A DNA stretch of 64,000 nt, from positions 18,705 to 82,704 of the forward strand of contig CAWGVY010000002.1 in assembly GCA_963826185.1 (NCBI GenBank), read 5' to 3'. Made by a program: the position numbers and the translations under genes. A model generated the notes under the pieces. It was not told the origin of the DNA, made no database searches, and was given only the letters and a program-made list of their open reading frames with translations. Positions 4,257-52,146 of the stretch are shown in pieces (within the stretch, counting starts at the first letter, position 1; every line of letters starts with the position of its first letter). This DNA is from an uncultured Actinomycetes bacterium. GTDB lineage: Bacteria > Actinomycetota > UBA4738 > HRBIN12.

Positions 4257-4402
4257 CCTGTCCTCCCTTTTCGATGTGCTGGGACCTGGCATAAGCAGTT
4301 CCATCTGCTGTTCGCCCTTCATGTTCGCGGCCAGAGCCGGGTCTGGATGAGGGCCGAACGACCCCTCGCCTGCGGGTCTATCTCCGCCGGCGGGATGCGA
4401 GG

Positions 4403-11564: not shown

Positions 11565-12950
11565 ATGCTGGACCGGGAGCTCGCAGAAGACGTGCTCCGG
11601 GCCGCCCGTCGCCGCGGAGGCTCGTTCGCGGAACTGTTCGTCGAGGAGCGCTCGTCGACATCGATCCGTCTGGACGACGGGAAGGTCGAGGAGCTGACCA
11701 CAGGGCTCGACCGCGGGGCAGGGGTTCGTGTGGCGCTCGGCACGTCGTACGGCTACGCCTATTCCAACCGCCTGGATCGCGAGGCGCTGTTGGAGGCAGC
11801 CGAAGCCGCCAGCGCGGCTCTGCGGGACGGGGCCGGCGGTGACGTCGTCGATCTGACCGAGCTCACGGGCAGGGGCACGAACCGGGTGGAGCGTCCCGCC
11901 GGCGAGGTGCCCGCCGCCGACAAGGTGGCGTGGCTCCAGGAGGTCGACGCCGTTGCCCGCGCCTACAGCCCCGAGGTGCTGCAGGTCGTCGGGGTTTACG
12001 GCGATTCCTTGCAGCGCAAACTGATCGCGACGTCGGACGGGCGATGGGTCCAGGAGGATCGCCCCAGGATCCGGATCGTGGCCCAGGTGGTGGCCAAGCG
12101 CGAAGACGTCATCCAAACGGGGCTCTTCGGGCCGGCGGCCTGTTCGGGGGTGGAGTTCATGGAGCGGTTCACCCCCCGGGCCACCGCTGAGCTGGCCGCC
12201 AAGCGTGCTGTGACGATGCTCGACTCGATCCCCGCGCCCGCCGGCGAGATGACGGTCGTCCTCGCGCCCGGGATGGGAGGGGTCCTGTTCCACGAAGCCG
12301 TCGGCCATCCGCTCGAGTCAGACGCCGTGGACAAGGAGGCCAGCGTGTATCGCGGGTTGATCGGTGAGCGGTGCGCGAGCGAGCTGATCAACGGGGTCGA
12401 CGACGCATCGGTCCCCAACGGCTGGGGATCGTTCGACTTCGACGACGAGGGTCAGCCGTCGCAGCGGACGGTCCTGTTCACCGAAGGCGTCCTGCAGAGC
12501 TTCCTCTACGACCGGCTGCGTGCGGAGAAGGCGGGAGTGGCCTCGACCGGGAACGGTAGGCGCGAATCCTACGCGCATCCACCCGTGGCCCGCATGACGA
12601 ACACCTACATCCTGGACGGCGGGTCGGAGCCCGACGACGTCCTGTCCTCGACCGTCAGCGGTGTGTACGTCACCTCCCTGGGCGGTGGGCAGGTCAACCC
12701 CGCCACCGGGGATTTCGTGTTCGGGGTCAGCGAGGGGTTCGTGTTGGACCACGGTCGCGTGGGCGCGCCGGTCCGCGGCGCGAACCTGATCGGGCGCGCC
12801 ATCGAGGTCATGAGTGCTGTGGATGCGGTCGCGAACGATTTCGACACGTGGGAGGGCGTCTGCGGCAAGGATGGTCAAGCGGCCCCGGTGGGCAGCGGGT
12901 CGCCCACGCTGCGGATCTCGAAGATCACCGTGGGAGGCACCGGTGCCTGA
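11565..12950 (+). CDS. tldD: Metalloprotease TldD
   Basis: ORF 11565..12950(+): TldD/PmbA-family sequence with HEAVGHPLESD metal site. Its stop overlaps the start of the pmbA-like partner. Confidence 0.9.
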   Translation: MLDRELAEDVLRAARRRGGSFAELFVEERSSTSIRLDDGKVEELTTGLDRGAGVRVALGTSYGYAYSNRLDREALLEAAEAASAALRDGAGGDVVDLTELTGRGTNRVERPAGEVPAADKVAWLQEVDAVARAYSPEVLQVVGVYGDSLQRKLIATSDGRWVQEDRPRIRIVAQVVAKREDVIQTGLFGPAACSGVEFMERFTPRATAELAAKRAVTMLDSIPAPAGEMTVVLAPGMGGVLFHEAVGHPLESDAVDKEASVYRGLIGERCASELINGVDDASVPNGWGSFDFDDEGQPSQRTVLFTEGVLQSFLYDRLRAEKAGVASTGNGRRESYAHPPVARMTNTYILDGGSEPDDVLSSTVSGVYVTSLGGGQVNPATGDFVFGVSEGFVLDHGRVGAPVRGANLIGRAIEVMSAVDAVANDFDTWEGVCGKDGQAAPVGSGSPTLRISKITVGGTGA

Positions 12951-14283
12951 GCTGGACGAGCTGGTTCGGGCGGCCGTGGACGCTGCGGAACCGGATGAAG
13001 CCGTCGAGGCCTACGCCGACGAGACCCGCCAGACCGAGGCCAGCGCGCTGCGAGGCGAGGTCGAAGGGCTGTCGTTCTCGGAGTCGCGCGGCGTGGGGGT
13101 GCGGGTGATCCGCGATGCACGGCTCGGCTACGCATGGGCCGCTGACCCGACGCCGGACGAGGTGCGCGACACGGTGCGCCGCGCCCGTGAGAACGCGGCG
13201 CTCGCCGAACCCGACGAGTTCAACGTGTTGCCAGGTGTCGAGGCCGCCGAGCCGATCTCCGCGCTGTTCCGTGAGGATGCGGCCCATCTCTCCACTGACC
13301 AGAAGGTACAGATGGCGTTGGACCTGGAGGCGCGCTCCGTGTCGCGGGATCCACGGGTGACCAAGGTGGATCTGGCGCAGGTGGGTGACGCCGTCTCGCG
13401 GTGTGCGATCGCCTCCACGGCCGGTGTCGAGGCCGGGTATGCACGCACGGACGCCTGGTGCGTGGTGGTGACCCTCGCGACCCAGGACGACGAAACGCAG
13501 ACGGGGTTCTCGTACAAGATCGCACGCGGCCTGGACGAACTCGGGTGGGAGTCGATCGCCGATGAGGCGGTGGAACGGAGCATCCAGATGCTCGGGGCGC
13601 TGAAGCCGCCCACCGCCAAGGTCCCCGTGATCTTGGATCCGTTCGCCGCCACGAACTTCCTTGGTGTGCTGGCGGGGGCGCTGAGCGCCGAGGCCGTACA
13701 GAAAGGCAGGTCCCTGTTCGCCACGATGGTGGGGGACCAGGTCGGCTCCCCGCTCGTCACGATCGTGGATGACGGGCGGGTGCCCGACGGGCCAGGCTCA
13801 TGCCCGTTCGACGACGAGGGCGTGCCGAGCGGCCGGACCGAGCTCTTCTCGGGCGGACGCCTCAACGGGTTCCTGCACGATGCCTACACGGCCGCGCGCG
13901 CTGGGGAAGGGCAGCGGAGCACCGGGAACGGCAAGCGGGGCTACCGCAGCGCTCCCGGCGTGGGCACGTCCAACTTCTTCCTGGATGCGGGGACCCGGTC
14001 CTTCGAACAGCTGCTCGCTGAGGCGGACGGCGGCGTCTTGATCCGCGACGTGTCCGGCGTCCACAGCGGCGCGAACCCGATCAGCGGGGAGTTCAGCGTG
14101 GGGGCCACCGGCCTGCGGATCGGGGGCGGGACCCTCGGTGAGCCCCTGCGGGAGATGACGATCGCCTCCACGTTGCCCGAGATGCTGGCGGGGATCTCGG
14201 CCGTCGGCGATGACCTCCGGTTCTTCTCCAGCGTGGGAACGCCGTCGATGTTGATCGGCGAGATGACCCTCGCCGGTGTCTGA
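12943..14283 (+). CDS. pmbA: TldD-partner protein PmbA/TldE
   Basis: GTG 12943 (GTGCCTGA overlap with the tldD stop) inside ORF 12814..14283. Reads VPELDELVRAAVDAA...GVGVRVIRDARLGYAW...SGVHSGANPISGEFS. Confidence 0.85.
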   Translation: MPELDELVRAAVDAAEPDEAVEAYADETRQTEASALRGEVEGLSFSESRGVGVRVIRDARLGYAWAADPTPDEVRDTVRRARENAALAEPDEFNVLPGVEAAEPISALFREDAAHLSTDQKVQMALDLEARSVSRDPRVTKVDLAQVGDAVSRCAIASTAGVEAGYARTDAWCVVVTLATQDDETQTGFSYKIARGLDELGWESIADEAVERSIQMLGALKPPTAKVPVILDPFAATNFLGVLAGALSAEAVQKGRSLFATMVGDQVGSPLVTIVDDGRVPDGPGSCPFDDEGVPSGRTELFSGGRLNGFLHDAYTAARAGEGQRSTGNGKRGYRSAPGVGTSNFFLDAGTRSFEQLLAEADGGVLIRDVSGVHSGANPISGEFSVGATGLRIGGGTLGEPLREMTIASTLPEMLAGISAVGDDLRFFSSVGTPSMLIGEMTLAGV

Positions 14284-18753: not shown

Positions 18754-19647
18754 GTGGAGGGTGCCCACGTGAAGGTCAGGAAAGCGGTGATCCCCGCCGC
18801 CGGGCTCGGGACACGGTTCCTTCCGGCGACCAAGGCGCAACCCAAAGAGATGCTGCCGGTCGTCGACACCCCCGCGATCCAGCTGGTCGTCGAGGAGGCC
18901 GTCCGGGCGGGTCTCACCGACATCCTGATCATCACGGGCCGGAACAAGCGATCCATCGAGAACCACTTCGACCGCAACGTCGAGCTGGAGTTGTTCCTCG
19001 AGGAGAAGGGGAAGTTCGACGACCTGAAGATGGTGCGCGGGCTCTCCGAGATGGCGGACATCCATTTCATCCGACAGGGCGAGGCGTTGGGGCTGGGGCA
19101 CGCGGTGAGCATCGCCGAGCCGCATGTGGGAGGGGAGCCGTTCGCCGTCCTCCTGGGCGACGATCTGATCCACGAGTCCGTGCCGCTGCTCCCCGAGATG
19201 CTGCGTGTGCACGAGAAGTACGGGCGGAGCGTCCTGGCCGCCCAGGAGGTCTCGAAGGACGAGATCTCGCTCTACGGGTGCATCACGCCGGAGTTCGTGG
19301 ACGAGAACCTGGCGCGCGTGATCTCGGTGATCGAGAAGCCCTCTCCAGAGGAGGCCCCTTCTAACCTCGCGGCGATCGGTCGCTACGTGTTCACCCCGGA
19401 GATCTTCCCGGCGATCCGCCAGACGAAGCCGGGCCGTGGCGACGAGATCCAGCTCACCGACGCGATCAATCTGCTCGCGCAGGAGCAGGCGGTGTACGCC
19501 TTCACCTTCGACCACGGTCGCTACGACGTGGGCAACAAGCTGGACTACCTCAAGGCCACGGTCGAGATGGCGATCGAGCGCGATGACGTTGGACCCGCGT
19601 TCCGCAGCTACCTTGCCGATCTGGTCCAGCGAAAGAAGCTCGTCTGA
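18754..19647 (+). CDS. galU: UTP--glucose-1-phosphate uridylyltransferase
   Basis: ORF 18754..19647(+): KAVIPAAGLGTRFLPATKAQPKEMLPVVD, LGDD, VEKP motifs. Start is GTG 18754 or GTG 18769. Confidence 0.9.
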   Translation: MEGAHVKVRKAVIPAAGLGTRFLPATKAQPKEMLPVVDTPAIQLVVEEAVRAGLTDILIITGRNKRSIENHFDRNVELELFLEEKGKFDDLKMVRGLSEMADIHFIRQGEALGLGHAVSIAEPHVGGEPFAVLLGDDLIHESVPLLPEMLRVHEKYGRSVLAAQEVSKDEISLYGCITPEFVDENLARVISVIEKPSPEEAPSNLAAIGRYVFTPEIFPAIRQTKPGRGDEIQLTDAINLLAQEQAVYAFTFDHGRYDVGNKLDYLKATVEMAIERDDVGPAFRSYLADLVQRKKLV

Positions 19648-19679
19648 GGCCCGATCCGGAGCCTCTGTAGACTCCGGGC

Positions 19680-20945
19680 ATGGCCAACGCTCATGCCGCC
19701 GTGCACGACCACGACTCAGGTGATGGATTGGTCCCGGTGGACGAAGCGCGGGAGCGGGTGCTCTCGGCCGTCAAGCCGTTGGCACCGTTGGAACTGCCGC
19801 TGACCGACGCCTTCGGGTGCGTGGTCGCGCAGGACATGGTCGCCGCCATCGACCTGCCGGAGTTCCCTTCATCGGCGATGGACGGTTTCGCCATCCGCGC
19901 TGCGGATACCGCCGCCGCATCCCCCCAGAGCGCCGTGGAACTCCGCATCGTGGGCCGATCGATGATCGGTCACCGCCCCGAGGCGACCGTCGGGATCGGT
20001 GAGGCGGTGGAGATCGCCACGGGGGCCCCCATACCGGCGGGCGCCGACGCCATCGTTCCGGTGGAGAACAGCGAGAAGGCGAACGAGACGGTCCGTCTCT
20101 TCCAGGCGCCCGCACCGGGCACCCACGTCCGCCCGGCGGGCGAAGACGTGAAGACCGGCCAGGTCCTGGTGGAGCGCGGCAAGCGCCTTGGTCCGCCCGA
20201 GCTGGGCCTGCTCGCGAACGCCGGACACCCCACCCCGCTGGTCCACCCGCGTCCGCGGGTGGTGGTGTTGTCCACCGGCGATGAGCTGATCCCACCTACC
20301 GAGACCCCCGAGTTCGGTCAGGTGCGCGATTCCAACGCGTTCACGATCTTCGGAGCGTTGCGTGATGCGGGCGCCATGCCGGTGCTCGCGGGGATCGTCC
20401 GTGACGACGTCGAGCAGCTGAAGGAAACGGTGCTCGACTACGTGATCCAAGCCGACGCCTTCATCTCGTCGGGAGGTGTGAGCGTGGGCGAGCGCGACGT
20501 CGTGAAGGCCGCCTTCTTCCGGCGGGGGGACATCGCCTTCTACAAGGTGGCCATGCAGCCCGGGATGCCGCAGGGGTTCGGCCACATCGAGGGCAAGCCG
20601 TACTGGGGGTTGCCCGGGAACCCCGTCAGCGTCTTCGTGAGCTTCGAGCAGTTCGTCCGGCCCGCGATCTTGAAGATGATGGGACGCACCCAGTTGGCGC
20701 GTCCCGAGGTCACGGCCACCCTCACGCAGGACGTGGCCGGTCCTGTGGGCAAACTGCAGTTCGCGCGGGTGCTCGTGGAGCGCACGCGAGAGGGGTGGCG
20801 CGCCACGCCCACCGGCGCCCGAGGGTCGAACCTGATCTCCACGGTGTCCCGCGCGAACGGTCTGGCGATGATCCCCCCCGGCATCGAGGTGGCGCCCGCC
20901 GGCTCTCCCGTCCGCGTCCAGGTGTTCCGCGCACCAGAGGACTGA
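19680..20945 (+). CDS. moeA: Molybdopterin molybdotransferase MoeA (gephyrin-like; possible Glp role)
   Basis: ORF 19680..20945(+): FPSSAMDGFA, STGDEL, SSGGVSVGERD, GLPGNPVS motifs of MoeA/gephyrin E-domain. Confidence 0.9.
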   Translation: MANAHAAVHDHDSGDGLVPVDEARERVLSAVKPLAPLELPLTDAFGCVVAQDMVAAIDLPEFPSSAMDGFAIRAADTAAASPQSAVELRIVGRSMIGHRPEATVGIGEAVEIATGAPIPAGADAIVPVENSEKANETVRLFQAPAPGTHVRPAGEDVKTGQVLVERGKRLGPPELGLLANAGHPTPLVHPRPRVVVLSTGDELIPPTETPEFGQVRDSNAFTIFGALRDAGAMPVLAGIVRDDVEQLKETVLDYVIQADAFISSGGVSVGERDVVKAAFFRRGDIAFYKVAMQPGMPQGFGHIEGKPYWGLPGNPVSVFVSFEQFVRPAILKMMGRTQLARPEVTATLTQDVAGPVGKLQFARVLVERTREGWRATPTGARGSNLISTVSRANGLAMIPPGIEVAPAGSPVRVQVFRAPED

Positions 20946-20950
20946 TCACG

Positions 20951-21430
20951 GTGGGCTCGCAGCAAGCCGGCGCTGATGGGGTCACCCGGATCATCGAGGT
21001 CGGCGCGAAGCCCGAGACCGAACGCACAGCGGTGGCCGAGTGCTGGGTGTCTATGACCTCCGAGGCCGTCGGAAACCTCCTCGCCGGCACGAGGAAGGGA
21101 TCACCCATCGAGACCGCGAAGATCGCCGGCGTGATCGGCGTGAAGGAAACGCCACGGCTGTTGCCGCACTGCCACCCGATCCGCGTGACGGGGGCCGAGA
21201 TCGTGATCGAGCCCGACCCGGCCGCAGGCCGCATCCGTGTCGAGGCCACCGTCCGCGCCATCGATCGGACCGGGGTGGAGATGGAGGCACTCACCGCCGC
21301 CGCCGTCTCCGCACTGAGCCTCTACGACACGGCCAAGGCGTTCGACCGTGCATCGCGGATCGATGGACTTCGTCTGTTGTCGAAATCGGGCGGAAAGTCC
21401 GGTGACTACCGGGCCGAGCCCTCAGCCTGA
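20951..21430 (+). CDS. moaC: Cyclic pyranopterin monophosphate synthase MoaC
   Basis: GTG 20951 within ORF 20795..21430: KGSPIETAKIAGVIGVKETPRLLPHCHPI...DRTGVEMEALTAAAVSALSLYD. Confidence 0.85.
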   Translation: MGSQQAGADGVTRIIEVGAKPETERTAVAECWVSMTSEAVGNLLAGTRKGSPIETAKIAGVIGVKETPRLLPHCHPIRVTGAEIVIEPDPAAGRIRVEATVRAIDRTGVEMEALTAAAVSALSLYDTAKAFDRASRIDGLRLLSKSGGKSGDYRAEPSA

Positions 21431-32103: not shown

Positions 32104-32115
32104 ACTGTCGACAGT
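32092..32115 (+). promoter_or_regulatory. Candidate GntR-type operator B: GACTGTCG-GTA-GACTGTCGACAGT
   Basis: GACTGTCG repeated at an 11-nt period. The second copy is part of the perfect palindrome ACTGTCGACAGT (32104-32115), which overlaps the GTG start (32114) of the grdE-like gene. Confidence 0.45.
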
Positions 32116-33372
32116 GTCATCCACGCTCGCTGATCTCGAGATCGCGACGTTCGCGGTCGACGAGGTCGTCGAGGGGGACCAGACAGGGCGGGACGGACGC
32201 ACCTTGGTGCTGTCGCTCCCGCAGCTCGCGGTCGGAGCCGGGGAGCCGGCGCTGGCGGAGGCCACGGTCGAGGTCATCCGTCCCGGCGATCCCGTTCGCA
32301 TCGCCAACGTCCTCGACGCCGTGTTGCCCGACGCCCGCGTCGACGATCCTTCGGCCACCTTCCCGGGCGTCGTCGGCTCCGCCGAGGCCGTGGTGGGTGG
32401 CCGGCTCCACCGGCTGACCGGCGTGACGGTGTTGCCCGTATGCGACTGGGCTGCCGCCGGATACGCGGACGCCGCGGAACTCCCCGACAGCTTCGTGGAC
32501 ATGGCAGGACCCGGCGCCGATCGGAGCCCGTTCGGCGCCACGACGAACCTGGTGGTGCGATGCGTCCCGCAACCGGGCGTCTCCGCCGCCGACGCCGATG
32601 CGGCGGTCAGACGGGCGTGCCTACGGCTCGCCAGTGACCTGGCCCTGAGCACGGCTGAGGACGAACCCGATGCCGTGAGGTCGATCGGGCCTGTGGCCTA
32701 CCCGCGATCCTTCCCTGGCCTCGATCGCGGTGATCCTTCAGGTCGCCTCGGAAGGCCCGTTGGTCGACACGTTCTGGCGCGGCTCGCCGATGCGCCCCCT
32801 GACGCCGAGGATCGCCGATCATCGCGAGGTGCTGGGAGGGTGTCTCACGAACGGCGCATACGACTGGCCGGGGGTGCGCAACGTGACCGCGCACTACCAA
32901 GACGGAGCGTTGCTCGTGCGGTGCTGCTCGAGGCCGACGGTGACCGTCTCCGCTACGCGGGCCTGGTGCTGACGCCCGGCTACCTGGACGACGCGGCCGA
33001 GAAGCGTCGGGCGGCGGAGCGCGCCGCCACGCTCGCGGACAGCTTGGGGCCGATGGTGTCGTGTGCACGACCTTCTCCTCCGGCAACTCACACACCGACA
33101 CGATGCTCACGGTCCGGGCGTGCGAAGCGATGCGGCCTGCGGACCGTGGCGCTCGTCGCCGAGACGAACGGTGGGCTCACCGATCACGTTCCCGAGGCCG
33201 ACTGCCTGGTGAGCACGGGGAACGAGGACGAGCTGGTGGAGCCGTGGAGCCCCGCTCGCGTGATCGGTGCGCAGGACGGTGCGCGAGCGGGCGAGCGGGT
33301 CCCGACCGTGCACTACCTGGCGGGCTGCACCGCAGATGGGCGACGCGCGATGGACGGCGGTGCCGGCATTGA
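32114..33372 (+). pseudogene. grdE: Glycine/sarcosine/betaine-reductase component B alpha/beta proprotein (GrdE/PrdA family), at least 4 frameshifts
   Basis: N-terminus in ORF 32114.. (LEIATFAVDEV...VEVIRPGDPVRIANVLDAV...FPGVVG). It continues in ORF 32730..32972 (IAVILQVASEGPLVDT...AHYQDGALL), then back to the first frame (LLEADGDRLRYAGLVLTPG). Next comes ORF 33061.. (ADGVVCTTFSSGNSHTDTMLTVRACEAM), then the first frame again (GLRTVALVAETNGG...). Shifts at about 32695-32725, 32920, 33046-33049 (G4 run) and 33133. The 3' end and stop are uncertain. Confidence 0.75.
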
Positions 33373-34659
33373 TCGTCCATTACCTGAACCAGTTCTTCGC
33401 GGGGTTGGGCGCGGAGGAGGCCGCCGGTCACGAGCCCGTCCGGATCGACGGGCCGGTGGGCCCGGGGCGCGGCCTGGTCGGCTGCCGGCCTTCGTCCCGA
33501 CATCACGCTCGCCTGCGGCGACGACTTCTTCGGTGAGCGGGAGGCCGAGGCGCTCGCCATCCTGGTGGGCTGGCTCGACGAGCTGCAGCCCGAGGTTCTG
33601 GTCTGCGGACCCTCGTTCGGATCGGGCCGCTACGGCTACGCGTGCGGGGTGCTGGCCCGCGAGGCAGGGCGACGAGGCATCCCGGTGGTCGCCGCGATGA
33701 CCGAGGACTCGCCCGGGGTGCTGGCCTCAGAAGGGGCGGCCTACATCGTGCCGACGGGTTCCAACGTCGCGGCGATGAAAGACGCCCTGCCCGCTATGGC
33801 GTCTCTGGCGTCTCGGCTCGCGGCCCGCGAGCCGGTCGGACCCGCCGAGCAGGAGGGCTACCTGCCCCGGGGGTTGCGGACCAATGTCTTCTCGGACCGC
33901 ACGGGGGCCGAGCGGGCGATCGATCTGTTGCTCGCGAAGCTCGCCGGCGATATCCGCACCGAAGTCACGCCGCGTGGGGATCGCGTGCCGCCTCCGCCGG
34001 CCTTGGCCGATCCCGGTGCGGCAACGATCGCTCTGGTGACCGAGGCGGGGTGCGTTCCCCAGGGCAATCCCGACCGCCTGCCGTCGCGTCACGCGCATCA
34101 GTGGCTCCGCTACGCGATCGCCGACCTCGACGGGCTGGATGCGCCGGCCTACAGATCCGTGCACGCGGGCTTCGACACCCACGCCGCGAACCTGGATCCG
34201 AACCGGCTCGTCCCGCTGGACGCGGTCCGCTCCCTCCAGCGTGCCGGGCGCATCGGCGACGTGTATCCGGCGTTCTTCACCACATCGGGCGTCGACACGC
34301 CCGTGGCCGTCGCCGCGCGCTTCGGCCAGGAGATGGCGCTGGAGCTCCGTGAGGCCGGCGTGCAGGCGGTGATCCTCACCGGGACCTGAGGCACCGGCAC
34401 GCGTTGCGGGGCAACGCTGGCGAAGGAACTCGAACGGGAAGGGATCGTGACCGTGTTCGTGACGGCGTTGCCGACGATCGCGCAGATGGTGGGCGCCAAC
34501 CGCATCCTGCGCGGTGTGTCGATCGCGCATCCCACCGGCGATCCCTCGCTGTCGGTGGGTGACGAACACGCCTTGCGCGAACGGATGGTGGGCCGAGCGC
34601 TGGACATGCTGGCGTCCGACGTCGGGCCGGGCACGGTGTGGGAACGGGAGGAACCGTGA
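33360..34659 (+). pseudogene. grdB: Selenoprotein B of glycine/sarcosine/betaine-reductase type (GrdB/GrdF/GrdH family): Sec-UGA at 34387-34389 plus one frameshift
   Basis: GTG 33360 gives (M)PALIVHYLNQFFAGLGAEEAAG. Frame change at about 33478-33486 into the frame of ORF 33565..34389. That ORF and ORF 34447..34659 are in the same frame, separated only by TGA 34387: ...GVQAVILTGT-U-GTGTRCGATLAKELEREGIVTVFVTALPTIAQMVGANRI... This is the conserved Sec context of GrdB. Confidence 0.85.
34401..34417 (+). promoter_or_regulatory. Candidate SECIS hairpin for grdB
   Basis: Perfect GCGTTGC-GGG-GCAACGC stem-loop starting 11 nt after UGA 34387-34389, with a G-rich apical loop. Confidence 0.5.
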
Positions 34660-35973
34660 GCGTGCGGCGCGCCGCCGTGACCGCGGCATCCTTCGTCCTG
34701 GAGCACGTTCCCGACCTGGTGCGGTATGGGTCCAAGCCGGCCAGGGAGCGAGGCGCAGCTGCCCGAGCTCCTGAGATCCCTGCGCTCGTTCGATGACGCG
34801 GTCGCCTATCCGCCGAACCAGGTGTTCATCGGCAACCTTGCACCCCAGGATCTTTGGGATCGCCCCAGGGACTGGTGGGAACACCCCCTCGAAGGCGCCG
34901 CCCCGACCGGCTCGACGGGCGAGGTGATGGATCCTGACGCCTTCTACGACCTGATGCGGGAGGTCGATCGGTTCGATCTGGTCACGTCCGAGTTCGTTCC
35001 CGAGTCCCGCGCGCTGCCCCTCTACCGCGGTACCGCGATCGTGGGAGCGATCGCCCCCGAGCATGAGCAGGACGAGTCGTTGAGCGCCTCCGTGTTGCTC
35101 GAGAACCTCGCGATCAAGGCGAGCGGCGTCCACGCCCTGCGCGATCTGCTCCAGCGAACGCAGATCGACCCCGCATCGATCACCCACGCGATCGGCTGTG
35201 GCGAAGAGGCCGTCGGCGACCGATACCAGCGCGGAGGCGGCAACATGGCCAAGGCGATCGCGGAGGAATGTGGTCTGCTGCGCGCTGCCGCGATCGATGT
35301 CAAGTCGTTCTGTGCGGCACCCGTTCACGCGATGGTCCTGGCCGCCGCCCTGATCGGGTCGGGCATCGAGGAGCGCGTGGTGGTGGTGGCGGGGGGCTCG
35401 CTGGGCAAGCTCGGGATGAAGTTCGAGGGAGCGCTCTCCAAGGGCTTCCCGATCCTGGAAGACGTACTGGCGGGGATGGCGATCCTCCTGGAGCCGGCGG
35501 ACGGCTCCAACGGACCCGTCCTGCGCACCGATGCGGTTGGCAGGATGCCGGTGCAGGCCGGCAACGCTCCCCAGGCTCAGCTGGAAGCGCTGGTGGGCTG
35601 CCCCCTCGACGCCCTGGGGATCACGGTCGGCGACGTGGGGACGTACGCCACCGAGATCCACAACCCGGAGATCACGCAACCGCAGGGCGGTGGCGACGTT
35701 GCGGACCGCAACTACAAGATGTTGGCCGGCCTGGGCGTGGTGCGCGGAGAGCTCGACCGGACCGACATCGCGGGGTTCGCGCGGGCACACGGGATGCCCG
35801 GGTTCGCGCCGACCCAAGGACACATCGCCAGCGCCGTTCCCTGGCTACCGCACGCGCTCGCCCGCATGCGGGCCGGTGAACTGCATCGAACGATGCTGAT
35901 CGCGAAAGGGTCGCTGTTCCTGGGACGCCTCACGCGTCTGTGGGACGGCGTGTCCGTGACGCTCGAGACCTGA
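34656..35973 (+). pseudogene. grdC: Glycine-reductase component C beta subunit (GrdC, thiolase-fold), one frameshift
   Basis: GTG 34656 (GTGA overlap with the grdB stop) gives VSVRRAAVTAASFVLEHVPDLVRYGSKPAR. Frame change at about 34745-34750 into ORF 34726..35973 (...LRSFDDAVAYPPNQVFIGNL...GGGNMAKA...). Confidence 0.8.
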
Positions 35974-35982
35974 GGAGGATCG

Positions 35983-36366
35983 ATGATCGATGCCACCGTG
36001 GACACCTTCCAGGAGCTCGCCGGCACCGGCGAGGTCTTGGTGGACATCTGGGGCCCGCAGTGCCAGCCGTGCCTCGCCCTGATGCCGGCGGTTGAGGCCC
36101 TGGCGGAGACCTACGGCGATCGCGTGCGGTTCGTGAAGGTGAACGCGCCGGAGAACCGGAGGATCTGCCGGGACCTGCGGGTGGCCGGCCTTCCCGCCTA
36201 CGTGACCCTGCGCGACGGGGTCGAGGTCGAGCGACTCACGAGCGCCGGGACCACGCCCAGGCAGATCGAGGACGCCATCGTCCGACTCGTGAACGGAGCG
36301 CCGGCGGTCGGTCCGCCGGTGCCGGAACACCTGCGCGAGCAGGCCGAGACCGCCGAAGGGGGGTGA
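35983..36366 (+). CDS. Thioredoxin-like protein with atypical active site WGPQCQPC
   Basis: ORF 35983..36366(+): thioredoxin fold with a CQPC dithiol, located between grdC and grdA as in clostridial grd operons. Confidence 0.8.
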   Translation: MIDATVDTFQELAGTGEVLVDIWGPQCQPCLALMPAVEALAETYGDRVRFVKVNAPENRRICRDLRVAGLPAYVTLRDGVEVERLTSAGTTPRQIEDAIVRLVNGAPAVGPPVPEHLREQAETAEGG

Positions 36367-36369
36367 CCC

Positions 36370-36828
36370 ATGGATCTACAGGGCAAGAAGGTGATCGCTC
36401 TCGGAGAGCGGGACAGCGTTCCCGGTGAGGCGATCGCCGAGGTGGCGCGTTCCGCCGGTGCCGAGGTGATCGAGGTGCGAACGGAGTGCTTCGTCTGAAC
36501 GGCGTCCGGTGCCATGGATCCGGACAACCAGGCGCTGATCAAACGGATCGTCGATGAGATCGGCAGCGACGACGTCGTGGTGATGCTCGGAGCCGCCGAC
36601 GCGGAGGCGGTCGAGGTCGCCGTCGAGACCGTCCGAGATGGCGATCCCGCCTGGGTGGGTCCATTGGCCGGGGTCCAGTTGGGACTCCCCGTGCTGCACG
36701 TGTTCGAGGACGAGGTGAAACGTCAGGCCGACGACGGCGTCTACGAGGCGCAGATCGGCTTCTTCGAGATGACCCTGGACGTCGACCAGGTGAAGGAGGC
36801 GATGAAGCGCGCCCGCGGCGAGACCTGA
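36370..36828 (+). CDS. grdA: Glycine/sarcosine/betaine-reductase selenoprotein A (Sec-UGA at 36496-36498)
   Basis: ATG 36370 gives MDLQGKKVIALGERDSVPGEAIAEVARSAGAEVIEVRTECFV-U-TASGAMDPDNQALIKRIVDE...GDPAWVGPLAGVQLGLPVLHVFE. The TGA is in frame with ORF 36514..36828. CFVUTA(A/S)GAMD is the GrdA active-site signature. Confidence 0.9.
36504..36525 (+). promoter_or_regulatory. Candidate SECIS hairpin for grdA
   Basis: GTCCGG-TGCCATGGAT-CCGGAC stem-loop beginning 5 nt after UGA 36496-36498. Confidence 0.45.
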
Positions 36829-43054: not shown

Positions 43055-43067
43055 GTCAACCGTTGAC
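43055..43067. promoter_or_regulatory. Inverted repeat GTCAAC-C-GTTGAC (candidate operator D), plus an extra GTCAAC at 43091-43096
   Basis: Lies in the divergent region between the DUF839-like gene (start 43008) and the potD-like gene (start 43133). ACCGTTGACA differs by one base from ACTGTTGACA at site A. Confidence 0.4.
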
Positions 43068-43132
43068 AATCTGCAAGTTCGACGGCTACGGTCAACTGGG
43101 CATCCGAGGGGCATGTCCGGCGGGGAGGATCG

Positions 43133-44256
43133 ATGAAGGCAAGGCGGTTCCTGATCGGTGCGGCGATGGCGACCGCCCTGGTCCTGGTGATGGCGGCCTG
43201 CAGCAACGAGGACGCGTCCTCCGGATCGAGCGCCGCCGGCACGAACCCCGCCGATCCCGCGTCGATCACCGGCAAGGTTCGCCTCTTCTCCTACTCAGAC
43301 GGCTTCGATCCCGAGTACATGTCGACCTTCTACGAGACCTATCCGAACATCGATCTGGAGACCGCCTCGTTCAACTCGAACGAAGTGGCCGTCGCCAAGA
43401 TCCAGGCGGGATTCCAGGCGGACGTGATCAACAGCTGCGTGGACGAGGCGACCCTGGAGATGGTGAACAAGGGGATGTACATGCCACTGGACACCTCGCG
43501 CCTGGAGAACTGGGATGCGATCTGGCCGGGCATGAAGATCCCTGCCCGGGGGTGCAGGTCGACGGCCAGGCGTACCTCGTGCCAGTGGATGCGGGCACCG
43601 CAGGGATCATGTACAACGCCGACGAGATCACCACGCCCCCCACGTCGTGGAAGGACCTGTTCGATCCACAGTACGAGGGGCGAGCGTCGCTGGAGGACCT
43701 GGCGATCACGGCGCTGGATGTCGGTGCCCTCGCCAACGGGATCGCGAACCCACTGGAGATGACCGACGAGCAGTTGGCACAGGTGACGCAGTACCTGAAG
43801 GATCACCGCGCATCAGTTCCGCACGTTCTACCAGGGGCAAGCCGACATCCGCGCGCAGTTCAAGTCCGGCGAGGTGATCATCTCTTCCGGCTACCCGGGC
43901 GACGCGAAGCAGATGCGAGAGGAGGACGGCGTGAACGTGCAGTTCGTGGCGGCTGAAGAGGGCCAGATGTTCTGGACGTGCGGGTACGGCATCAGTCCCG
44001 ACATCGATCCCGGAGAACCTGGACGCGGCCTACGCACTGCTGAACTGGTACACATCGCTGCCACCGCAGATCTACGCAGCCACCAACTGCAACTTCCTCG
44101 ACGTCGAACGAGGGGATCATCGACGCGGTCCCCAAGAAGGTCGTCCAGGAAGCCGCGCTGGATTCTCTCTACAGCCTGGACAACGCGATCCCCGCTAGCC
44201 CTCCAGACGACCGTGCGGCGTGGATCGCGGCGTGGACCGAGGTGAAGGCCTCCTAG
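43133..44256 (+). pseudogene. PotD-type (polyamine/amine) ABC substrate-binding lipoprotein, 4 frameshifts
   Basis: Lipobox VMAAC. Reading frames alternate between ORFs 43133.., 43063.., 43874.. and two unlisted frames. Segments read ...WPGMKI / PGVQVDGQAYLVPVDAGTAGIMYN...YLKDHR / QFRTFYQGQADIRAQFKSGEVIISSGYPGD...GISPDIDP / ENLDAAYALLNWYTSLPPQIYAATNCNFLDV / NEGIIDAVPKKVV...AAWTEVKAS. Shifts at about 43540, 43812, 44012 and 44106. Confidence 0.75.
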
Positions 44257-45173
44257 TGGCTCAGGCGGTCTCCGAGCGCGCCGGTCTGCCGGTCACGGAC
44301 CTGGCCGGGGCGGCCCGGTGGCGGCGTCGACGCGCCCTCAACGCCTGGGGCTGGCGCGCGTTCCTGGCGATCGTGATGTTGGCCCTGTTCGGCCCGCTCG
44401 TGATCCTGGTGCTGTTCTCGTTCAACGACGCCAGCGTGCTGGCGTTCCCACTGGAAGGGTTCACGCCCCATTGGTACGCGGACGCACTCGTCGGATGCCG
44501 ACGCTCCGCACGGCCATCGCGAACTCTTTCGCCGTCGCGTTGATCGTGGCGCCCTCTGAGCCTCGTGTTGGGGACCCTGGCGGCCTTCGGGCTCACGAGG
44601 TTCCGGTTCCGTGGACGGGGGCGGTCGGCGGACTGGTCGGCGCCCCGCTGGTCCTGCCGTGGCTCATCGTCGGCATCGCCGCGCTGATGGGCTACGCCAG
44701 GGCGAACATCGACCTCAGCCTCAGGACGGTGATCGCGACCCAGACGGTCTGCACGTTCCCGCTTGTGACCGCGATCGTGGCCGCGCAGCTCTTCCGCTTC
44801 CAGAAGGTGCAGGAGGAGGCCGCCATCGACCTGGGATGCACGCGCCTTGCAGGTACTGCGGCACATCATCCTGCCGCACATCTTCCCCGCTCTCGCGGCG
44901 GCGACGATCTTCGCGTTCACGTGGTCGTTCAACAACTACGAGATCAGCGCGTTCACGCTCGGGTTCCAACAGACGTTCCCTGTGTGGGTCTTCTCGTCGG
45001 TGCGCAACCCCGATCACACCGCCGTGGTGAACGCGATCTCGACCCTCATCTCGCTCGCACAGCTGCTGTTGATCTGGCTCGCGCTCCGTCTGCTCCGGTC
45101 GCGCTCGGGGGACGAAGGAGCGAAGAGCCTGATCGCCGGCACCGAGGCCGTGGCGGCGGGGGCGAAGACCTAG
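44256..45173 (+). pseudogene. PotC-type ABC permease, 4 frameshifts
   Basis: GTG 44256 (overlaps TAG 44254-44256). Segments read ...FSFNDASVLAFPLEGFTPHWYADAL / TLRTAIANSFAVALIVAP / LSLVLGTLAAFGLTRFRFRGRG / AVGGLVGAPLVLPWLIVG...EEAAIDLG / QVLRHIILPHIFPALAAAT... Shifts at about 44495, 44554, 44617-44621 (G5 run) and 44846. Confidence 0.75.
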
Positions 45174-46055
45174 ATGGCAGCGGTCGAAGACGTTCTCGAG
45201 ATCCCCCGCGGCGGCGGGAAGCCTCGTGGATCCGGACGCGGTGCGTTCGGGATCCTGTTCGCCCCCGTCACGCTGCTGATCCTGTTCTTCCTGTTGCCCT
45301 TCCTGATCATGGTGCAGATGAGCGTGGTGAAGTACCCGCCCAACCTGTCCAGCGGGTACACGCTCAGTCACTACGTCGAGGTCCTGACGAACGACCTCAA
45401 CCCCCACATCGCGTGGACCACGATCACGATCGCCACCACGGCCATGGCGATCATGCTCTTGATCGCGATCCCGCTCGCCCACTTCATGGTCTTCCGAGCG
45501 GGGAAGTGGGAGCTGTTCCTGCTGCTGTCGCTCGTGCTGGCCGACGAACTGGCTCCCGTGGTGAAGGTCTACGCTTGGCAGGTGATCCTGGGTCGCAACG
45601 GGATCGCCAACTGGCTGATCCCGGGACCGCCGGTCGAATGGCTCCTCTACAGCAGGTTCGCGGTGATCCTGACCCTGGCCACCACCTACATCACCTACAC
45701 GACGATCCCGATCTACGCCGCGATGAAGGCGATCGAGCCCTCGATGTTCGAGGCGGCGACCGATCTGGGCGCGGGATGGTGGCAGCAGTCGCGCAAGATC
45801 CTGATCCCGCTGGCGGCCCCCGGCATCTTCGTCGCCATGATCCTGGTGTACATCCCGATGCTCACGGACTTCGTGACGTCGGACATCGTGGGAGGAGCCG
45901 GTTCCTTCATGATGGGCCAACGCGTCCGCAACCTGATCCTGGAGCAGGGCGACTGGGGAGCGGGATCCGCGTTGAACTTCCTCCTCCTGGGGATGTCGGT
46001 CGTGCTGTCTCTCGTGGCCTACCGCCTCGCCAAGCTGAACAGGATCGACGCATGA
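45174..46055 (+). CDS. PotB-type ABC permease (intact)
   Basis: ORF 45174..46055(+): six TM segments and the EAA-type loop FEAATDLGAGWWQQSRKILIPLAAPG. Confidence 0.85.
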   Translation: MAAVEDVLEIPRGGGKPRGSGRGAFGILFAPVTLLILFFLLPFLIMVQMSVVKYPPNLSSGYTLSHYVEVLTNDLNPHIAWTTITIATTAMAIMLLIAIPLAHFMVFRAGKWELFLLLSLVLADELAPVVKVYAWQVILGRNGIANWLIPGPPVEWLLYSRFAVILTLATTYITYTTIPIYAAMKAIEPSMFEAATDLGAGWWQQSRKILIPLAAPGIFVAMILVYIPMLTDFVTSDIVGGAGSFMMGQRVRNLILEQGDWGAGSALNFLLLGMSVVLSLVAYRLAKLNRIDA

Positions 46056-47245
46056 GCGCGAACGGGCAGCCGGGTCGCGAGGGCGAGATCCAGGTGGAGC
46101 GTTGCACGAAACGTTTCGGCGACGTGACGGCGGTGAACGACGTATCGATCACGATCCCGGGCGGAGAGTTCTTCTCGATGCTGGGACCGAGCGGGTGCGG
46201 GAAGACCACCACGTTGCGGATGATCGCCGGGTTCGAAACGCCGGACGAGGGCCGGATCCTTCTGCAGGGGCAGGAGGTCACGCACGTCCCGCCCGCGAAG
46301 CGCAACGTCAACATGGTGTTCCAGGCCTACGGGCTGTTCCCGCACATGACGGTCGCGCAGAACATCGCGTTCGGCCCGAAGATCAAGAAGCTGCCGCGCC
46401 AGGAGGTCGCCGAACGTCTGATCGAGATCCTGAGGGTCGTGCGGCTGGAGGGATACCAGGACCGCCGCCCCGGACAGCTCTCGGGGGGGCAACAGCAGCG
46501 TGTGGCCCTGGGTCGTGCCCTGATCAACCGCCCCGCCGCGCTCCTGTTGGACGAGCCCCTGGGAGCGCTGGATCTGAAGCTTCGCAAGGAGATGCAGCTG
46601 GAACTCAAGGATCTGCAGCAGCGCACCGGCACCACGTTCGTCTACGTCACGCACGATCAGGAGGAGGCGATGACGATGTCCGATCGCATCGCCGTCATGA
46701 ACGGTGGCGTGGTGGAACAGCTCGCCACGCCTCGCGAGCTCTACCAGCGCCCCGCTTCGGCCTTCGTAGCCGGGTTCATCGGGACGTCGAACCTGATCGA
46801 ACTGCGGGTCGACCGGCGCGAGGACGGGCTGCTGACCATGGATCTCGGCGGAGGCCAGCGGATCCTGGCGATCGACCCCGAGGCCTCGCCGGGCGCCCCC
46901 GGCGTCGACGCTCACGCCACCATCACCGTGCGTCCGGAGTGGATCAAGGTGGCGAGTGGTGACGTCGGGATCGGCGACTCCCAGGTGACCGGCACGGTGG
47001 TCGACGTCGTCTACCTGGGGTCGGTGACCCAGCTGATCGTGTTGCTCCCGACGGGAGAGCAACTCACCGTGCACCGCCTGAACGACGAGGTCGGCGCCGA
47101 GGACCCGACGCCGGGTCGACAGGTGACCGTGCACTGGGCGGCGGAGCACAGCTACGTGGTGGGATCGTCCGTGGGCGTGCCCGCGGCCTCGGAAGACCCC
47201 ACCCACGGCGGGGGCGGCCAGGCGGCCGCCCCCGCCACCACCTAG
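46052..47245 (+). CDS. PotA-type ABC ATPase
   Basis: ATG 46052 (ATGA overlap). This is the last 397 codons of the chimeric track ORF 44318..47245. Walker A GPSGCGKTT, LSGGQQQRVALGRAL, LLLDEP, and a C-terminal TOBE-like domain. Confidence 0.9.
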   Translation: MSANGQPGREGEIQVERCTKRFGDVTAVNDVSITIPGGEFFSMLGPSGCGKTTTLRMIAGFETPDEGRILLQGQEVTHVPPAKRNVNMVFQAYGLFPHMTVAQNIAFGPKIKKLPRQEVAERLIEILRVVRLEGYQDRRPGQLSGGQQQRVALGRALINRPAALLLDEPLGALDLKLRKEMQLELKDLQQRTGTTFVYVTHDQEEAMTMSDRIAVMNGGVVEQLATPRELYQRPASAFVAGFIGTSNLIELRVDRREDGLLTMDLGGGQRILAIDPEASPGAPGVDAHATITVRPEWIKVASGDVGIGDSQVTGTVVDVVYLGSVTQLIVLLPTGEQLTVHRLNDEVGAEDPTPGRQVTVHWAAEHSYVVGSSVGVPAASEDPTHGGGGQAAAPATT

Positions 47246-47264
47246 AGGAGGAAGGACCGCAACC

Positions 47265-48599
47265 ATGTCCACCGACACCGGCTCCATGACGGCCGAGCAG
47301 ATCATCGAGGACTCCAAGCGCTTCACGCTGTTCGACTGGCAGGCGCAGTCGAAGGTGTCGCCGCTCGCGATCGATCGCGCCGAAGGTGTCTACATGTATG
47401 GCGTGGACGGCAGGCGCTGGATCGACTTCAGCTCGCAGCTCATGGGCGTCAACATCGGGCACGGGGACAAGCGCGTCACCGAGGCGATCGCGCGCCAGGC
47501 CGAGAAGCTCCCCTACGTCTCCCCGTTCCAGGCCTTCGAGGGCCGCGCGGTCCTTGGGCGCAAGCTCGCCGGGCTGTGGCCCGGGGACATCGAGAAGACG
47601 TTCTTCACCCTCGCCGGAGCCGAGGCTAACGAGAACGCCGTGAAGATCGCGAAGCTCGTCACGGGCCGCCAGAAGGTGCTGGCCCGCTACCGCTCCTACC
47701 ACGGATCGACGTTCGCCACGATGGCGATGACCGGCGATCCCCGACGGTGGCCCAACGAGGCACCGCCGATGCCGGGCGTGGTCCACGTGATGGACCCGTA
47801 CCACGGCCCCAAGCGTGGGTTCGACGATGCGCCCACCGCCCTGGCGTTGCTGGAGGAGACGATCGAATTGGAGGGCCCGCAGACGATCGCGTGCTTCATC
47901 CTGGAGCCGGTGACGGGGACGAACGGGATCCTGATCCCCCCGGATGGATACCTGCAAGGTGTGCGCGAACTCTGCACGGCCCACGGCATCCTGCTGATCG
48001 CCGACGAGGTGATGTGTGGATGGGGCCGAACGGGGGAATGGTTCGCGGTGAACCACTGGGACGTGGTACCGGACCTGATCACCACCGCCAAGGGACTCAC
48101 CTCCTCCTATGCTCCTCTGGGCGCCGTGGGGATGCGCCCGGAGCTGGCCGCCTACTTCGAGGACAACGTGTTCTGGGGCGGTCTCACCTACAACACGCAT
48201 CCCTTGGGCGTGGCCGCCGCGATCGCCGCGGTGCAGGTCCTGGAGGATGACGACCTCATCGGTAACGCGAAGCGGCTGGAACCTGTGATGCGCGCCCATC
48301 ACGAGGCGCTCGCGGCGAAGCACCCCAGCGTCGGGCGCTACCGCAACATCGGGCTGTTCGGGATCTTGGAGCTCGTGAAGGACCGCGAGACGATGGAACC
48401 GCTCAGTCCCTTCAACACCGTGAGCGAGCCGATGGCCGAGTTGAACCGGTTCCTGCTCGACAACGGACTCGCCACCTTCATCCGGTGGTGGAACGTGATG
48501 ACGAACCCACCGCTGTGCATCACCGAGGAGGAGCTGGCGGAGGGCTTCGAGATCATCGACCGGGCCTTGGAGATCTCCGACGCTGCCATGGAGTCGTGA
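47265..48599 (+). CDS. Class-III (omega) aminotransferase
   Basis: ORF 47265..48599(+), strong RBS GGAGGAAGG. ADEVMCGWGRTGEWF, TTAKGLTS (PLP-Lys) and GLTYNTHPLG. Confidence 0.85.
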   Translation: MSTDTGSMTAEQIIEDSKRFTLFDWQAQSKVSPLAIDRAEGVYMYGVDGRRWIDFSSQLMGVNIGHGDKRVTEAIARQAEKLPYVSPFQAFEGRAVLGRKLAGLWPGDIEKTFFTLAGAEANENAVKIAKLVTGRQKVLARYRSYHGSTFATMAMTGDPRRWPNEAPPMPGVVHVMDPYHGPKRGFDDAPTALALLEETIELEGPQTIACFILEPVTGTNGILIPPDGYLQGVRELCTAHGILLIADEVMCGWGRTGEWFAVNHWDVVPDLITTAKGLTSSYAPLGAVGMRPELAAYFEDNVFWGGLTYNTHPLGVAAAIAAVQVLEDDDLIGNAKRLEPVMRAHHEALAAKHPSVGRYRNIGLFGILELVKDRETMEPLSPFNTVSEPMAELNRFLLDNGLATFIRWWNVMTNPPLCITEEELAEGFEIIDRALEISDAAMES

Positions 48600-49477
48600 T
48601 GGGGGAGCGGATCGGGTTCATCGGCCTGGGGATCATGGGCAGGCCCATGGCCCTTCACCTGGTGGAGGCGGGCTACCCGCTCACGGTGCATTCGCGCAGC
48701 CCCGGCCCCGTGGACGAGTTGGTCGCGGCGGGGGCTGCGCGGGCCGAGGGGCCGGACGGCGTCGGCGCGGCGAGCGACATCGTGATCACGATGCTCCCCG
48801 ACACCCCGGATGTGGATCAGGTCCTGTTCGGGCAGGGCGGGGTCTCCGAAGGCCTCCAGGCGGGAAACCTGGTGATCGACATGAGCTCGATCGATCCGAT
48901 CCCCACGCGCGCGTTCGCCGAGCGCCTGGCGGAACGCGATGTGGCGATGCTCGACGCGCCGGTCTCGGGTGGGGAGAAGGGAGCCTTGGAGGCCACGTTG
49001 TCGATCATGGTGGGGGGCGCGGAGGAGTCGGTCACGCGGGCGATGCCCATCTTCGAGACCCTGGGGGCCAGCGTCGTGCACGTCGGGTCCTCGGGCGCCG
49101 GGCAGATCTGCAAGGCCTGCAACCAGCTGGTGGTCGCCGCCACGATCGAGGCGGTGGCCGAGGCGCTGGTCCTGGCCGAGCGCGCCGGGGTGGACCCGGC
49201 GAAGGTGCGCGAAGCCCTGATGGGAGGGTTCGCAGGATCCAAGATCCTGGAGGTGCATGGGCAGCGGATGCTGGACCGTGCGTTCGACCCGGGGTTCCGC
49301 GTGCGGCTGCATCGGAAGGACGCCAGGATCGTGATGGACGCGGCCGCGGAGGTGGGCGCGCCGGTGCCGTCGTTCACCATCGTGGCCGAGCAGTTCCAGC
49401 GCTTGATCGACCGAGGTGGCGGCGAGCTAGACCACTCGGGCTTGTTCACCCTCTTGGAGGCCGAACCGAGCCGCTGA
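48599..49477 (+). CDS. NAD(P)-dependent beta-hydroxyacid dehydrogenase (tartronate-semialdehyde / 3-hydroxyisobutyrate reductase family)
   Basis: ATG 48599 (TGATG overlap) within ORF 48485..49477: IGFIGLGIMGRPMA, DAPVSGG, GAGQICKACNQ. Confidence 0.85.
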   Translation: MGERIGFIGLGIMGRPMALHLVEAGYPLTVHSRSPGPVDELVAAGAARAEGPDGVGAASDIVITMLPDTPDVDQVLFGQGGVSEGLQAGNLVIDMSSIDPIPTRAFAERLAERDVAMLDAPVSGGEKGALEATLSIMVGGAEESVTRAMPIFETLGASVVHVGSSGAGQICKACNQLVVAATIEAVAEALVLAERAGVDPAKVREALMGGFAGSKILEVHGQRMLDRAFDPGFRVRLHRKDARIVMDAAAEVGAPVPSFTIVAEQFQRLIDRGGGELDHSGLFTLLEAEPSR

Positions 49478-51228: not shown

Positions 51229-51390
51229 CGCGTCTCCCTCCCGTCAGGGTCTACTTCGCGAACCCGAACAGGTCAAGGAACCACCGCACGCCTCCTGACC
51301 AGGTACGCGCGCCTGCCGGAGCGAGCCGTGACTTGTGGGCATAGATCTGTCGTCGGACGACCCCGGGAACCCCGGTGGTAGCGTCCAGCC

Positions 51391-52146
51391 GTGCCCACCG
51401 TCGCAAGGATCAACGTCACGCCGGTGAAGTCCACGGCGCTGCACCACCCCGCGTCGGTTGAGCTCGAGACCACCGGGCCGGTGGGTGACCGCCGCTTCTT
51501 CTTCGTGGACGACGCTGGCGAACGGTTCGGCGGCGATGCCAAGGCGCCGCTGATGGTGGTGCAGGCATCCCTGGAGGGGGAACGGTTGGCGCTCCGGTTC
51601 CCGGACGGCCGCGTCGTCGAAGGGGTCGCGAGGCCCGATGGGACGGCGATCTCGGTGGACTACCTGGGCGAACCGGTGGGGGCCCACCTGGTGGGCGGCA
51701 CGTGGAGCCGGGACCTATCGGATCACCTTGGTCGGAGCCTCCACCTGGCGTACCTCGACGAGCCGGCGACCCTGGTCGACGAGCCGGTGACGATCGTCTC
51801 GCTCGCCTCGGTCGAGGAACTGGGACGCCAAGGCGGGAAAGACGATCTGGATGCGGATCGGTTCCGCATGACGTTCGAGCTGGACGGGTGTGAGCCTCAC
51901 GAGGAAGACACGTGGACGGGGCGGAGGATCGCGGTCGGTGACGCGGAGCTGGAGATCGGAACGGGGATCCCCCGTTGCGTGATCACCACCCTCGATCAGC
52001 GGACCGGGCGTCCGGACTTCCCCACCCTCAAGGTGATCGCCGGCTACCGGGATCCGCTCCCCGACCGTGAGATGCCCTTCGGGATGTATGCGACCGTGAC
52101 CCGTCCGGGAACGGTGAGCGTGGGCGACGCCGTCACGCCCGGTTAG
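51391..52146 (+). CDS. MOSC-domain protein
   Basis: ORF 51391..52146(+): beta-barrel N-domain plus MOSC core ...DRFRMTFELDG...GIPRCVITT... Confidence 0.75.
   Translation: MPTVARINVTPVKSTALHHPASVELETTGPVGDRRFFFVDDAGERFGGDAKAPLMVVQASLEGERLALRFPDGRVVEGVARPDGTAISVDYLGEPVGAHLVGGTWSRDLSDHLGRSLHLAYLDEPATLVDEPVTIVSLASVEELGRQGGKDDLDADRFRMTFELDGCEPHEEDTWTGRRIAVGDAELEIGTGIPRCVITTLDQRTGRPDFPTLKVIAGYRDPLPDREMPFGMYATVTRPGTVSVGDAVTPG

Follow-up and report, generated by a model that had tools for sequence, protein, structure and literature searches.

The 64,000-nucleotide (nt) stretch of contig CAWGVY010000002.1 analyzed here in full (the window) comes from an uncultured Actinomycetes bacterium and has a GC content of 65–72%. 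The organism is a soil actinobacterium with high-GC DNA and is close to metagenome-assembled genomes (MAGs) of the Thermoleophilia/Gaiellales type. On the forward strand the window carries the five-gene cassette grdE-grdB-grdC-trx-grdA, the second member of which, a grdB-family gene, is interrupted by an in-frame TGA at 34387–34389. A first-pass annotation, made from the letters and their open reading frames (ORFs), had proposed that this triplet specifies selenocysteine (Sec) in a GrdB-type selenoprotein B. On the evidence presented below, the TGA can be read with considerable confidence as a Sec codon in the protein B subunit of a selenoenzyme of the glycine/sarcosine/betaine reductase family, accompanied by an insertion hairpin, in a gene that is probably intact and whose insertions and deletions (indels) are most likely errors of assembly.

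The two ORF pieces on either side of the codon, 33565..34389 and 34447..34659, do lie in the same frame, and the TGA is the sole stop before the terminal TGA at 34657–34659. Translation in the frame of the first piece yields ...GVQAVILTGT up to the TGA and GTGTRCGATLAKELEREGIVTVFVTALPTIAQMVGANRILRGVSIAHPTGDP... after it; a longer translation reads REAGVQAVILTGT before the TGA and GTGTRCGATLAKELEREGIVTVFVTALPTIAQMVGANRILRGVSIAHPTGDPSLS beyond it, ending in EREEP at the terminal stop. In alignments with the TIGR01918 profile, position 345 is the last covered by the upstream piece and 347 the first covered by the downstream piece, placing the TGA on the Sec column (346), and the 89 codons 3′ of the TGA match profile positions 347–431 in frame. 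It had also been anticipated that a plain ORF caller would truncate the gene, in this case at ≤340 residues, and a search of 5.8 billion proteins agrees, as nearly all of the 120 best matches listed are of about that length (337–356 amino acids). Six homologs in this size range were read out and all six end at ...ILTGT, indicating truncation by gene callers at the same UGA. An alternative genetic code with TGA as a sense codon was considered and rejected: TGA is the ordinary stop in 10 of the 11 window genes checked, and the recoding is therefore site-specific.

Genomic DNA from relatives bears out the Sec column directly. Species-representative genomes (one for each GTDB species) were scanned with patterns built from an alignment of the clade, which yielded 80 loci and confirmed at least 530 stretches as relatives. 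The 80 loci show 58–77% identity and all derive from MAGs that bear the labels Actinomycetota, Actinomycetes, Thermoleophilia, Gaiellales, or Gaiellaceae. At the Sec column, every one of them (80/80) has TGA, beyond which the frame stays open and conserved and the same hairpin element occurs. Five other full-length homologs possess a genuine TGT or TGC codon for cysteine at this column. Homologs thus do not simply end at this position devoid of Sec or Cys, and the interpretation of the TGA as a Sec codon is supported. One ortholog in an Actinomycetota MAG is labelled “family reductase selenoprotein B” by NCBI. As a separate observation, grdA retains its UGA in two of the relatives (L082 and L083), in which grdB now encodes Cys in place of Sec and has Ser in place of the downstream Cys (RCG to RSG).

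Exactly 11 nt 3′ of the TGA lies the perfect hairpin GCGTTGC-GGG-GCAACGC (34401–34417), just where the first-pass annotation had placed it as a candidate bacterial Sec insertion sequence (SECIS) element. The Rfam model SECIS_4 (RF01990), whose consensus is GGuACcUGUACUCGUUGCGGUGCAACGAUgGU and which represents the GrdB element, matches positions 34390–34427 over its full length (1–38) with 37.0 bits, compared with a gathering score of 38, and E = 6.3e-6. In Escherichia coli fdhF, the minimal SECIS is a 17-nt stem-loop located 11 nt after the UGA. The window’s element resembles both SECIS_4 and the fdhF SECIS in that it directly follows the UGA, with an 11-nt spacer, a 17-nt stem-loop, and a G-rich loop, and its stem CGUUGC...GCAACG is identical to the Rfam consensus; it differs from SECIS_4 in that the spacer encodes G-T-G-T instead of G-T-C-T and the loop is GGG instead of GGU. 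Comparison of the folding energy with that of shuffled sequences gave z = −0.17 (66 nt) and −1.2 (39 nt) for a sequence of 70% GC. Since such energies are ordinary for GC-rich sequence, the evidence for more than chance lies in the Rfam match and in conservation.

Conservation of the hairpin was assessed in 81 sequences, 63 of them distinct. In the 7-bp stem, 97.1% of the cells are paired in the true register versus 24–61% in slid controls, and none of 500 shuffles reached the observed value. Pair 18–28 is U-A in 34 and C-G in 29 of the distinct sequences and is never broken, representing a compensatory swap in which a synonymous change in the Arg codon (CGT to CGC) goes together with a Thr-to-Val change (ACG to GTG) on the opposite arm. 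Third-position entropy is 1.58–1.82 bits at the Gly, Thr, and Gly codons of the spacer, whereas the stem and loop have Thr ACG and Cys TGC without any variation, Gly GGG at 0.39 bits, and Ala/Ser NCA at 0.20 bits. Among the five Cys orthologs, the hairpin is kept in L081 and L086 and lost in L082, L087, and L088, and its loss in L087 occurred mostly through synonymous changes. Together, these sequence comparisons show that the RNA structure is under selection wherever the UGA is present.

The family of the encoded protein is clear. The repaired protein (see below) scores 398.2 bits against TIGR01918 (cutoff, 65.45), with residues 2–425 aligned to profile positions 2–431, and the upstream piece matches Pfam PF07355 (GRDB) at 6e-94; a full-length score, the Sec/Cys column, and a cluster containing a GrdE-type partner together with GrdA, GrdC, and thioredoxin all place it in TIGR01918/PF07355. 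None of the three specific models reaches its cutoff, with 348.2 versus 602.2 bits for GrdB proper (TIGR01917), 396.7 versus 800 for the sarcosine reductase GrdF (NF040794), and 379.9 versus 775 for the betaine reductase GrdH (NF040795). The GrdB and GrdF motifs are those defined by Nobu et al. (PMC9751293); the former, AHGGxD[QTAP]..RV[IL]PxD..TxGNxTxV, is unmatched by the protein, which has VHAGFDT, RLVPLD, and TSGVDTPV, and the latter, IHGGYDR..TTGTGT, is absent. The redox motif of GrdB has been described as UxxCxxC (PMC13188914). In the window and all 80 relatives, it is U-G-T-G-T-R-C, or UxxGxxC, with Gly replacing the middle Cys of the classical motif. Because the specific models and motifs are not matched, the term “GrdB-type” used in the first-pass annotation holds at the level of the family and cannot be extended to a glycine-, sarcosine-, or betaine-specific enzyme.

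In comparison with clostridial GrdB, GrdF, and GrdH, then, the protein belongs to the same fold family from end to end, has its Sec in the same column, and is encoded directly downstream of a GrdE-type proprotein, with GrdA (itself Sec-containing), GrdC, and thioredoxin in the cluster. It departs from them in falling far below all three specific cutoffs, in its unmatched motifs and UxxGxxC, in a gene order (grdE-grdB-grdC-trx-grdA) that lacks grdD, trxB, and grdX, and in its host, a high-GC soil actinobacterium and not an anaerobic Firmicute. The D-proline reductase subunit PrdB (TIGR04483) is also related, with homology over the Sec-containing C-terminal half (72 bits); PrdB differs in being short (a 238-position profile), its cutoff of 300 is far above this score, and there is no PrdA-type partner here. 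A sequence search of the PDB found no solved relative. An ORF of 698 codons overlaps grdB and grdC on the opposite strand (33727–35823); the codon model detects no coding signal in it, and it is a long spurious ORF of the sort usually seen in high-GC DNA.

One part of the first-pass annotation needs correction, namely its treatment of 33360–34659 as a single frame. The N-terminus, VHYLNQFFAGLGAEEAAGHEPVRIDGPVGPGRGLVG, is read in the frame in which position modulo 3 equals 0, and from ~33483 the rest of grdB is read in the frame in which it equals 1. The N-terminal piece in the former frame, VHYLNQFFAGLGAEE..GRGLVG, runs from 33360/33369, and the likely start codon is at 33368–33371, where relatives have ATG and the window has cATTGa. 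High-scoring segment pairs from tblastn with an ortholog place the switch at 33466–33476, the Viterbi path of a codon model places it at 33481/33482, and a DNA alignment reveals one extra base relative to seven relatives. With one base removed, GRGLVGAGLRPDITL is encoded and can be aligned gap-free with homologs, and the gene comprises ~429 codons with Sec as U340.

Breaks of the same kind are found in the adjoining genes and well beyond them. At the grdE/grdB junction (GCATTGATC), an extra T displaces the TGA stop of grdE; relatives have GCATGAC.. at this point, i.e., an overlapping ATG and TGA. By Pfam and closer homologs, grdE undergoes five frame changes in the deposited sequence; a single frame, as suggested by tblastn with distant GrdE, was overturned by these two lines of evidence. 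In grdC, comparison with relatives reveals a 1-nt insertion at ~34745–34751, with a tblastn frame switch at 34735–34739. Window-wide, ~20 single-base frameshifts interrupt otherwise well-conserved genes; coding signal and conservation continue across each break, and no nonsense codons are left after repair. A simple frame plot of third-position GC was too noisy for this work, and the codon-model Viterbi path was used instead. As an automatic frameshift counter, this path gave about one false positive per 5–6 kb at gene overlaps in short-read MAG controls, and only frameshifts verified by homology were counted as firm. In long-read “MFD” relatives L047 and L075, the lengths of the grdB matches are not multiples of 3, and several MFD loci have 7–11 frame switches per 13 kb versus 0–3 in short-read MAGs, in which the few seen fall at gene overlaps. 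With ~20 similar frameshifts distributed across the window, consensus error in a long-read metagenome assembly is the most likely source of the indels, and any ORF-based reading of the window should allow for them. Among the genes so affected is one on the reverse strand (2838–4332) for a secreted repeat protein with recurring DGSLDPSFGxxGKV-type units, which is split over four frames.

Coordinates of the grd cassette, its recoding signals, and the frameshifts in the window, together with the Sec-to-Cys sites of relatives
Feature	Coordinates	Strand	Basis or remarks
grdE-like gene (PF09338 component-B proprotein)	32114..33372	+	Pfam matches in two frames, tblastn with relatives’ GrdE, three-frame inspection
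grdB-family selenoprotein B gene	33360..34659	+	PF07355 6e-94, TIGR01918 398 bits; 58–78% identity to many homologs
1-nt insertion (+1 frameshift) in grdB	33470..33483	+	frame (position modulo 3) changes from 0 to 1
UGA Sec codon	34387..34389	+	residue ~340, context ILTGT-U-GTGTRCGA; position 346 of TIGR01918
Bacterial SECIS element	34390..34427	+	11-nt spacer 34390–34400, 7-bp stem and GGG loop 34401–34417, flanks; RF01990, minimum free energy structure
grdC, component C beta subunit	34656..35973	+	NF040746 525 bits versus cutoff 450
Thioredoxin, CQPC active site	35983..36366	+	NCBIfam thioredoxin models; in 71/83 loci
grdA, selenoprotein A	36370..36828	+	PF04723 3e-57; NF040748 196 bits versus cutoff 130
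Frameshift sites	~30105, 32690–33370 (several), 33470–33483, 34745–34751, 38302/38303, 39249		
Frameshift sites, continued	43538–44105 (four), ~44500–44842, 3414–4015 (three), 60523		
Broken gene outside grd: aminotransferase	~30105		
Broken gene outside grd: SDR	38302/38303		
Broken gene outside grd: MR_MLE enzyme	39249		
Broken gene outside grd: solute-binding protein	43.1–44.2 kb		in five frames
Broken gene outside grd: permease			
Broken gene outside grd: repeat protein	2.8–4.3 kb		
Broken gene outside grd: membrane protein	60.5 kb		
Sec-to-Cys sites in relatives	L081 2298, L086 1095, L087 1627, L082 9021, L088 1136		

The cassette as a whole is conserved, with the five genes present in 70–78 of 83 related loci; truncated contigs might account for much of the shortfall. 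The repaired GrdE-like protein passes no specific model, its score of 139.6 bits against GrdG being below the cutoff of that model. The GTG start of grdC overlaps the stop of grdB (GTGA). The last gene, grdA, contains the second in-frame UGA of the locus at 36496–36498, in the context ECFV-U-TASGAMD, and the TGA is kept in 71 loci; a search for its SECIS gave no Rfam match at E ≤ 10, and RNAalifold resolved no convincing structure from 65 distinct downstream sequences.

Further support for Sec decoding comes from a relative of the window. In locus L036, whose GrdB is 69% identical, grdB is preceded at a distance of 4.6 kb by a tRNA-SeC with anticodon TCA (1269–1365) and followed 5.5 kb downstream by the start of selB (12780–13271; TIGR00475 at 1.2e-50 on a 164-residue fragment). 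With tRNA-SeC and selB flanking the cassette, the clade can be taken to decode Sec. Between grdA and selB, the same locus has an Rv1679/Rv1680-like gene pair encoding an acyl-CoA dehydrogenase and a solute-binding-protein-like product, the latter weakly similar to a putative selenate-binding family. In the window itself, tblastn with E. coli SelA, SelB, and SelD gave nothing below E = 0.1 across the 64 kb, and the only tRNA is one tRNA-Ala.

Several findings tell against a working Sec codon in an intact gene. The deposited grdB cannot yield a full-length protein; ~8 indels cluster in 32.1–34.8 kb, with none in 24–30 kb; the 64-kb window contains none of selA, selB, selD, and tRNA-Sec; and the cassette contains neither grdD, for the component C alpha subunit, nor trxB, whether in the window (32114–36828) or in the 83 related loci. 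As for the hairpin, its Rfam score is 1 bit under threshold, its stability alone is no better than that of shuffles, and folding energy was dropped as evidence; moreover, the conserved RCGA peptide by itself imposes part of the conservation seen in the stem, and the compensatory swap at pair 18–28 may represent few independent events. One rival reading is that the hairpin is only a by-product of the conserved peptide T-R-C-G-A-T/V-L, without any function as RNA, and that read-through would be accomplished by other means. The stem does lie within conserved codons, two Cys orthologs (L081 and L086) retain it, and the folding z-score is weak. However, four-fold degenerate third positions are fixed in the stem while identical amino acids in the spacer vary in theirs, the synonymous CGT-to-CGC change co-occurs with its partner ACG-to-GTG such that the pair is kept, and the stem has decayed in three Cys orthologs, mostly by synonymous change in L087, all of which makes an origin from the peptide sequence alone very improbable. 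Even less can be said for the TGA as an ordinary stop that releases a 340-residue GrdB-like product, with the downstream 89 codons being a separate small gene or untranslated. Gene callers annotate it in this way, P0004 and most database homologs are of 337–356 amino acids, and TGA is the usual stop in the window, but the downstream codons fit family profile positions 347–431 in frame and are kept in 80/80 loci, translation of full-length Cys orthologs continues past this point, and a hairpin of the SECIS type has been conserved at the spacing canonical for such elements; termination at this codon is accordingly an exceedingly remote prospect.

The most serious competing explanation concerns the state of the operon, and not the codon. 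If the operon were decaying, the UGA and SECIS would be relics, the frameshifts in grdE, the junction, grdB, and grdC would be real, and the selenoprotein would no longer be made. The concentration of ~8 frame changes within 2.7 kb (32.1–34.8 kb), the four genes at 24.1–29.9 kb that are intact when compared with Pfam profiles, and the lack of Sec machinery within the 64-kb window are all in keeping with decay. On the other hand, frameshifts of the same kind occur in unrelated genes all over the window, repair leaves no nonsense codons or large deletions and an identity to relatives that is normal, the TGA and perfect hairpin persist, no damage is seen in grdA, trx, or most of grdC, and related long-read MAG loci bear similar frameshift loads. 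Decay is thus judged to be unlikely, and a Sec codon in a gene most likely broken by the assembly remains the preferred reading.

If the Sec codon operates as do those of E. coli fdhF and clostridial grdB, the hairpin 11 nt past the UGA would bind SelB-GTP-Sec-tRNA(Sec) and deliver it to the ribosome, whereupon the UGA would be read as Sec and the last 89 codons translated. By analogy with clostridial Grd, the protein would be expected to work with the pyruvoyl proprotein GrdE encoded just upstream, and Sec340 could attack a substrate attached to processed GrdE through its pyruvoyl group. The resulting Se-carboxymethyl-type group would presumably pass to the Sec of GrdA, with GrdC then converting the carboxymethyl-type group to an acyl-phosphate and thioredoxin re-reducing GrdA.

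Both GrdA and GrdB have long been known as selenoproteins (PMC1794560). Rfam and NCBIfam already include models of the UGA and SECIS of GrdB, and the recoding event is therefore not new. Literature searches, in turn, found no paper describing this actinobacterial Grd clade. It is conceivable, although on balance doubtful, that the window and its relatives represent a distinct, uncharacterized clade of Grd-type selenoenzymes that is widespread in soil Actinomycetota (at least 530 matches), with UxxGxxC, a fixed cassette without grdD or trxB, and a substrate other than glycine, sarcosine, or betaine. If so, another substrate would be reduced in organisms that are not known for Stickland-type anaerobic metabolism. 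In any event, many uncultured soil bacteria of the Thermoleophilia, Gaiellales, and other Actinomycetota share a conserved, selenium-dependent Grd-type cassette, which bears on the use of selenium in soil and on the catabolism of amines or amino acids and presents a clear target for biochemical characterization. The locus is also of value for annotation, as ORF callers cut the gene at its UGA and, in the window, an indel splits it as well.

The neighborhood of the cassette is partly shared with closer relatives, in which, as in the window, it is linked to genes for an amine oxidase/PhoX, a class-III aminotransferase, and an SGL-lactonase-like protein upstream and to SDR and GntR genes downstream. 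Two groups of genes make the region look like a catabolic island for amines or amino compounds around the grd cassette. Genes for an amine oxidase, an amidohydrolase, and an Orn/Arg-type decarboxylase are located at 24–28 kb. Farther downstream, window positions 43061–49460 include a polyamine-type ABC transporter (a frameshifted solute-binding protein, two permeases, and an ATPase with a TOBE_2 domain) and, 3′ of it, a second class-III aminotransferase and a 3-hydroxyisobutyrate-dehydrogenase-like gene. Elsewhere in the window, 18754–21418 contains a nucleotidyl-transferase gene and, after it, moeA and moaC for molybdenum-cofactor biosynthesis, and a MOSC-domain gene is present at 51388–52143.

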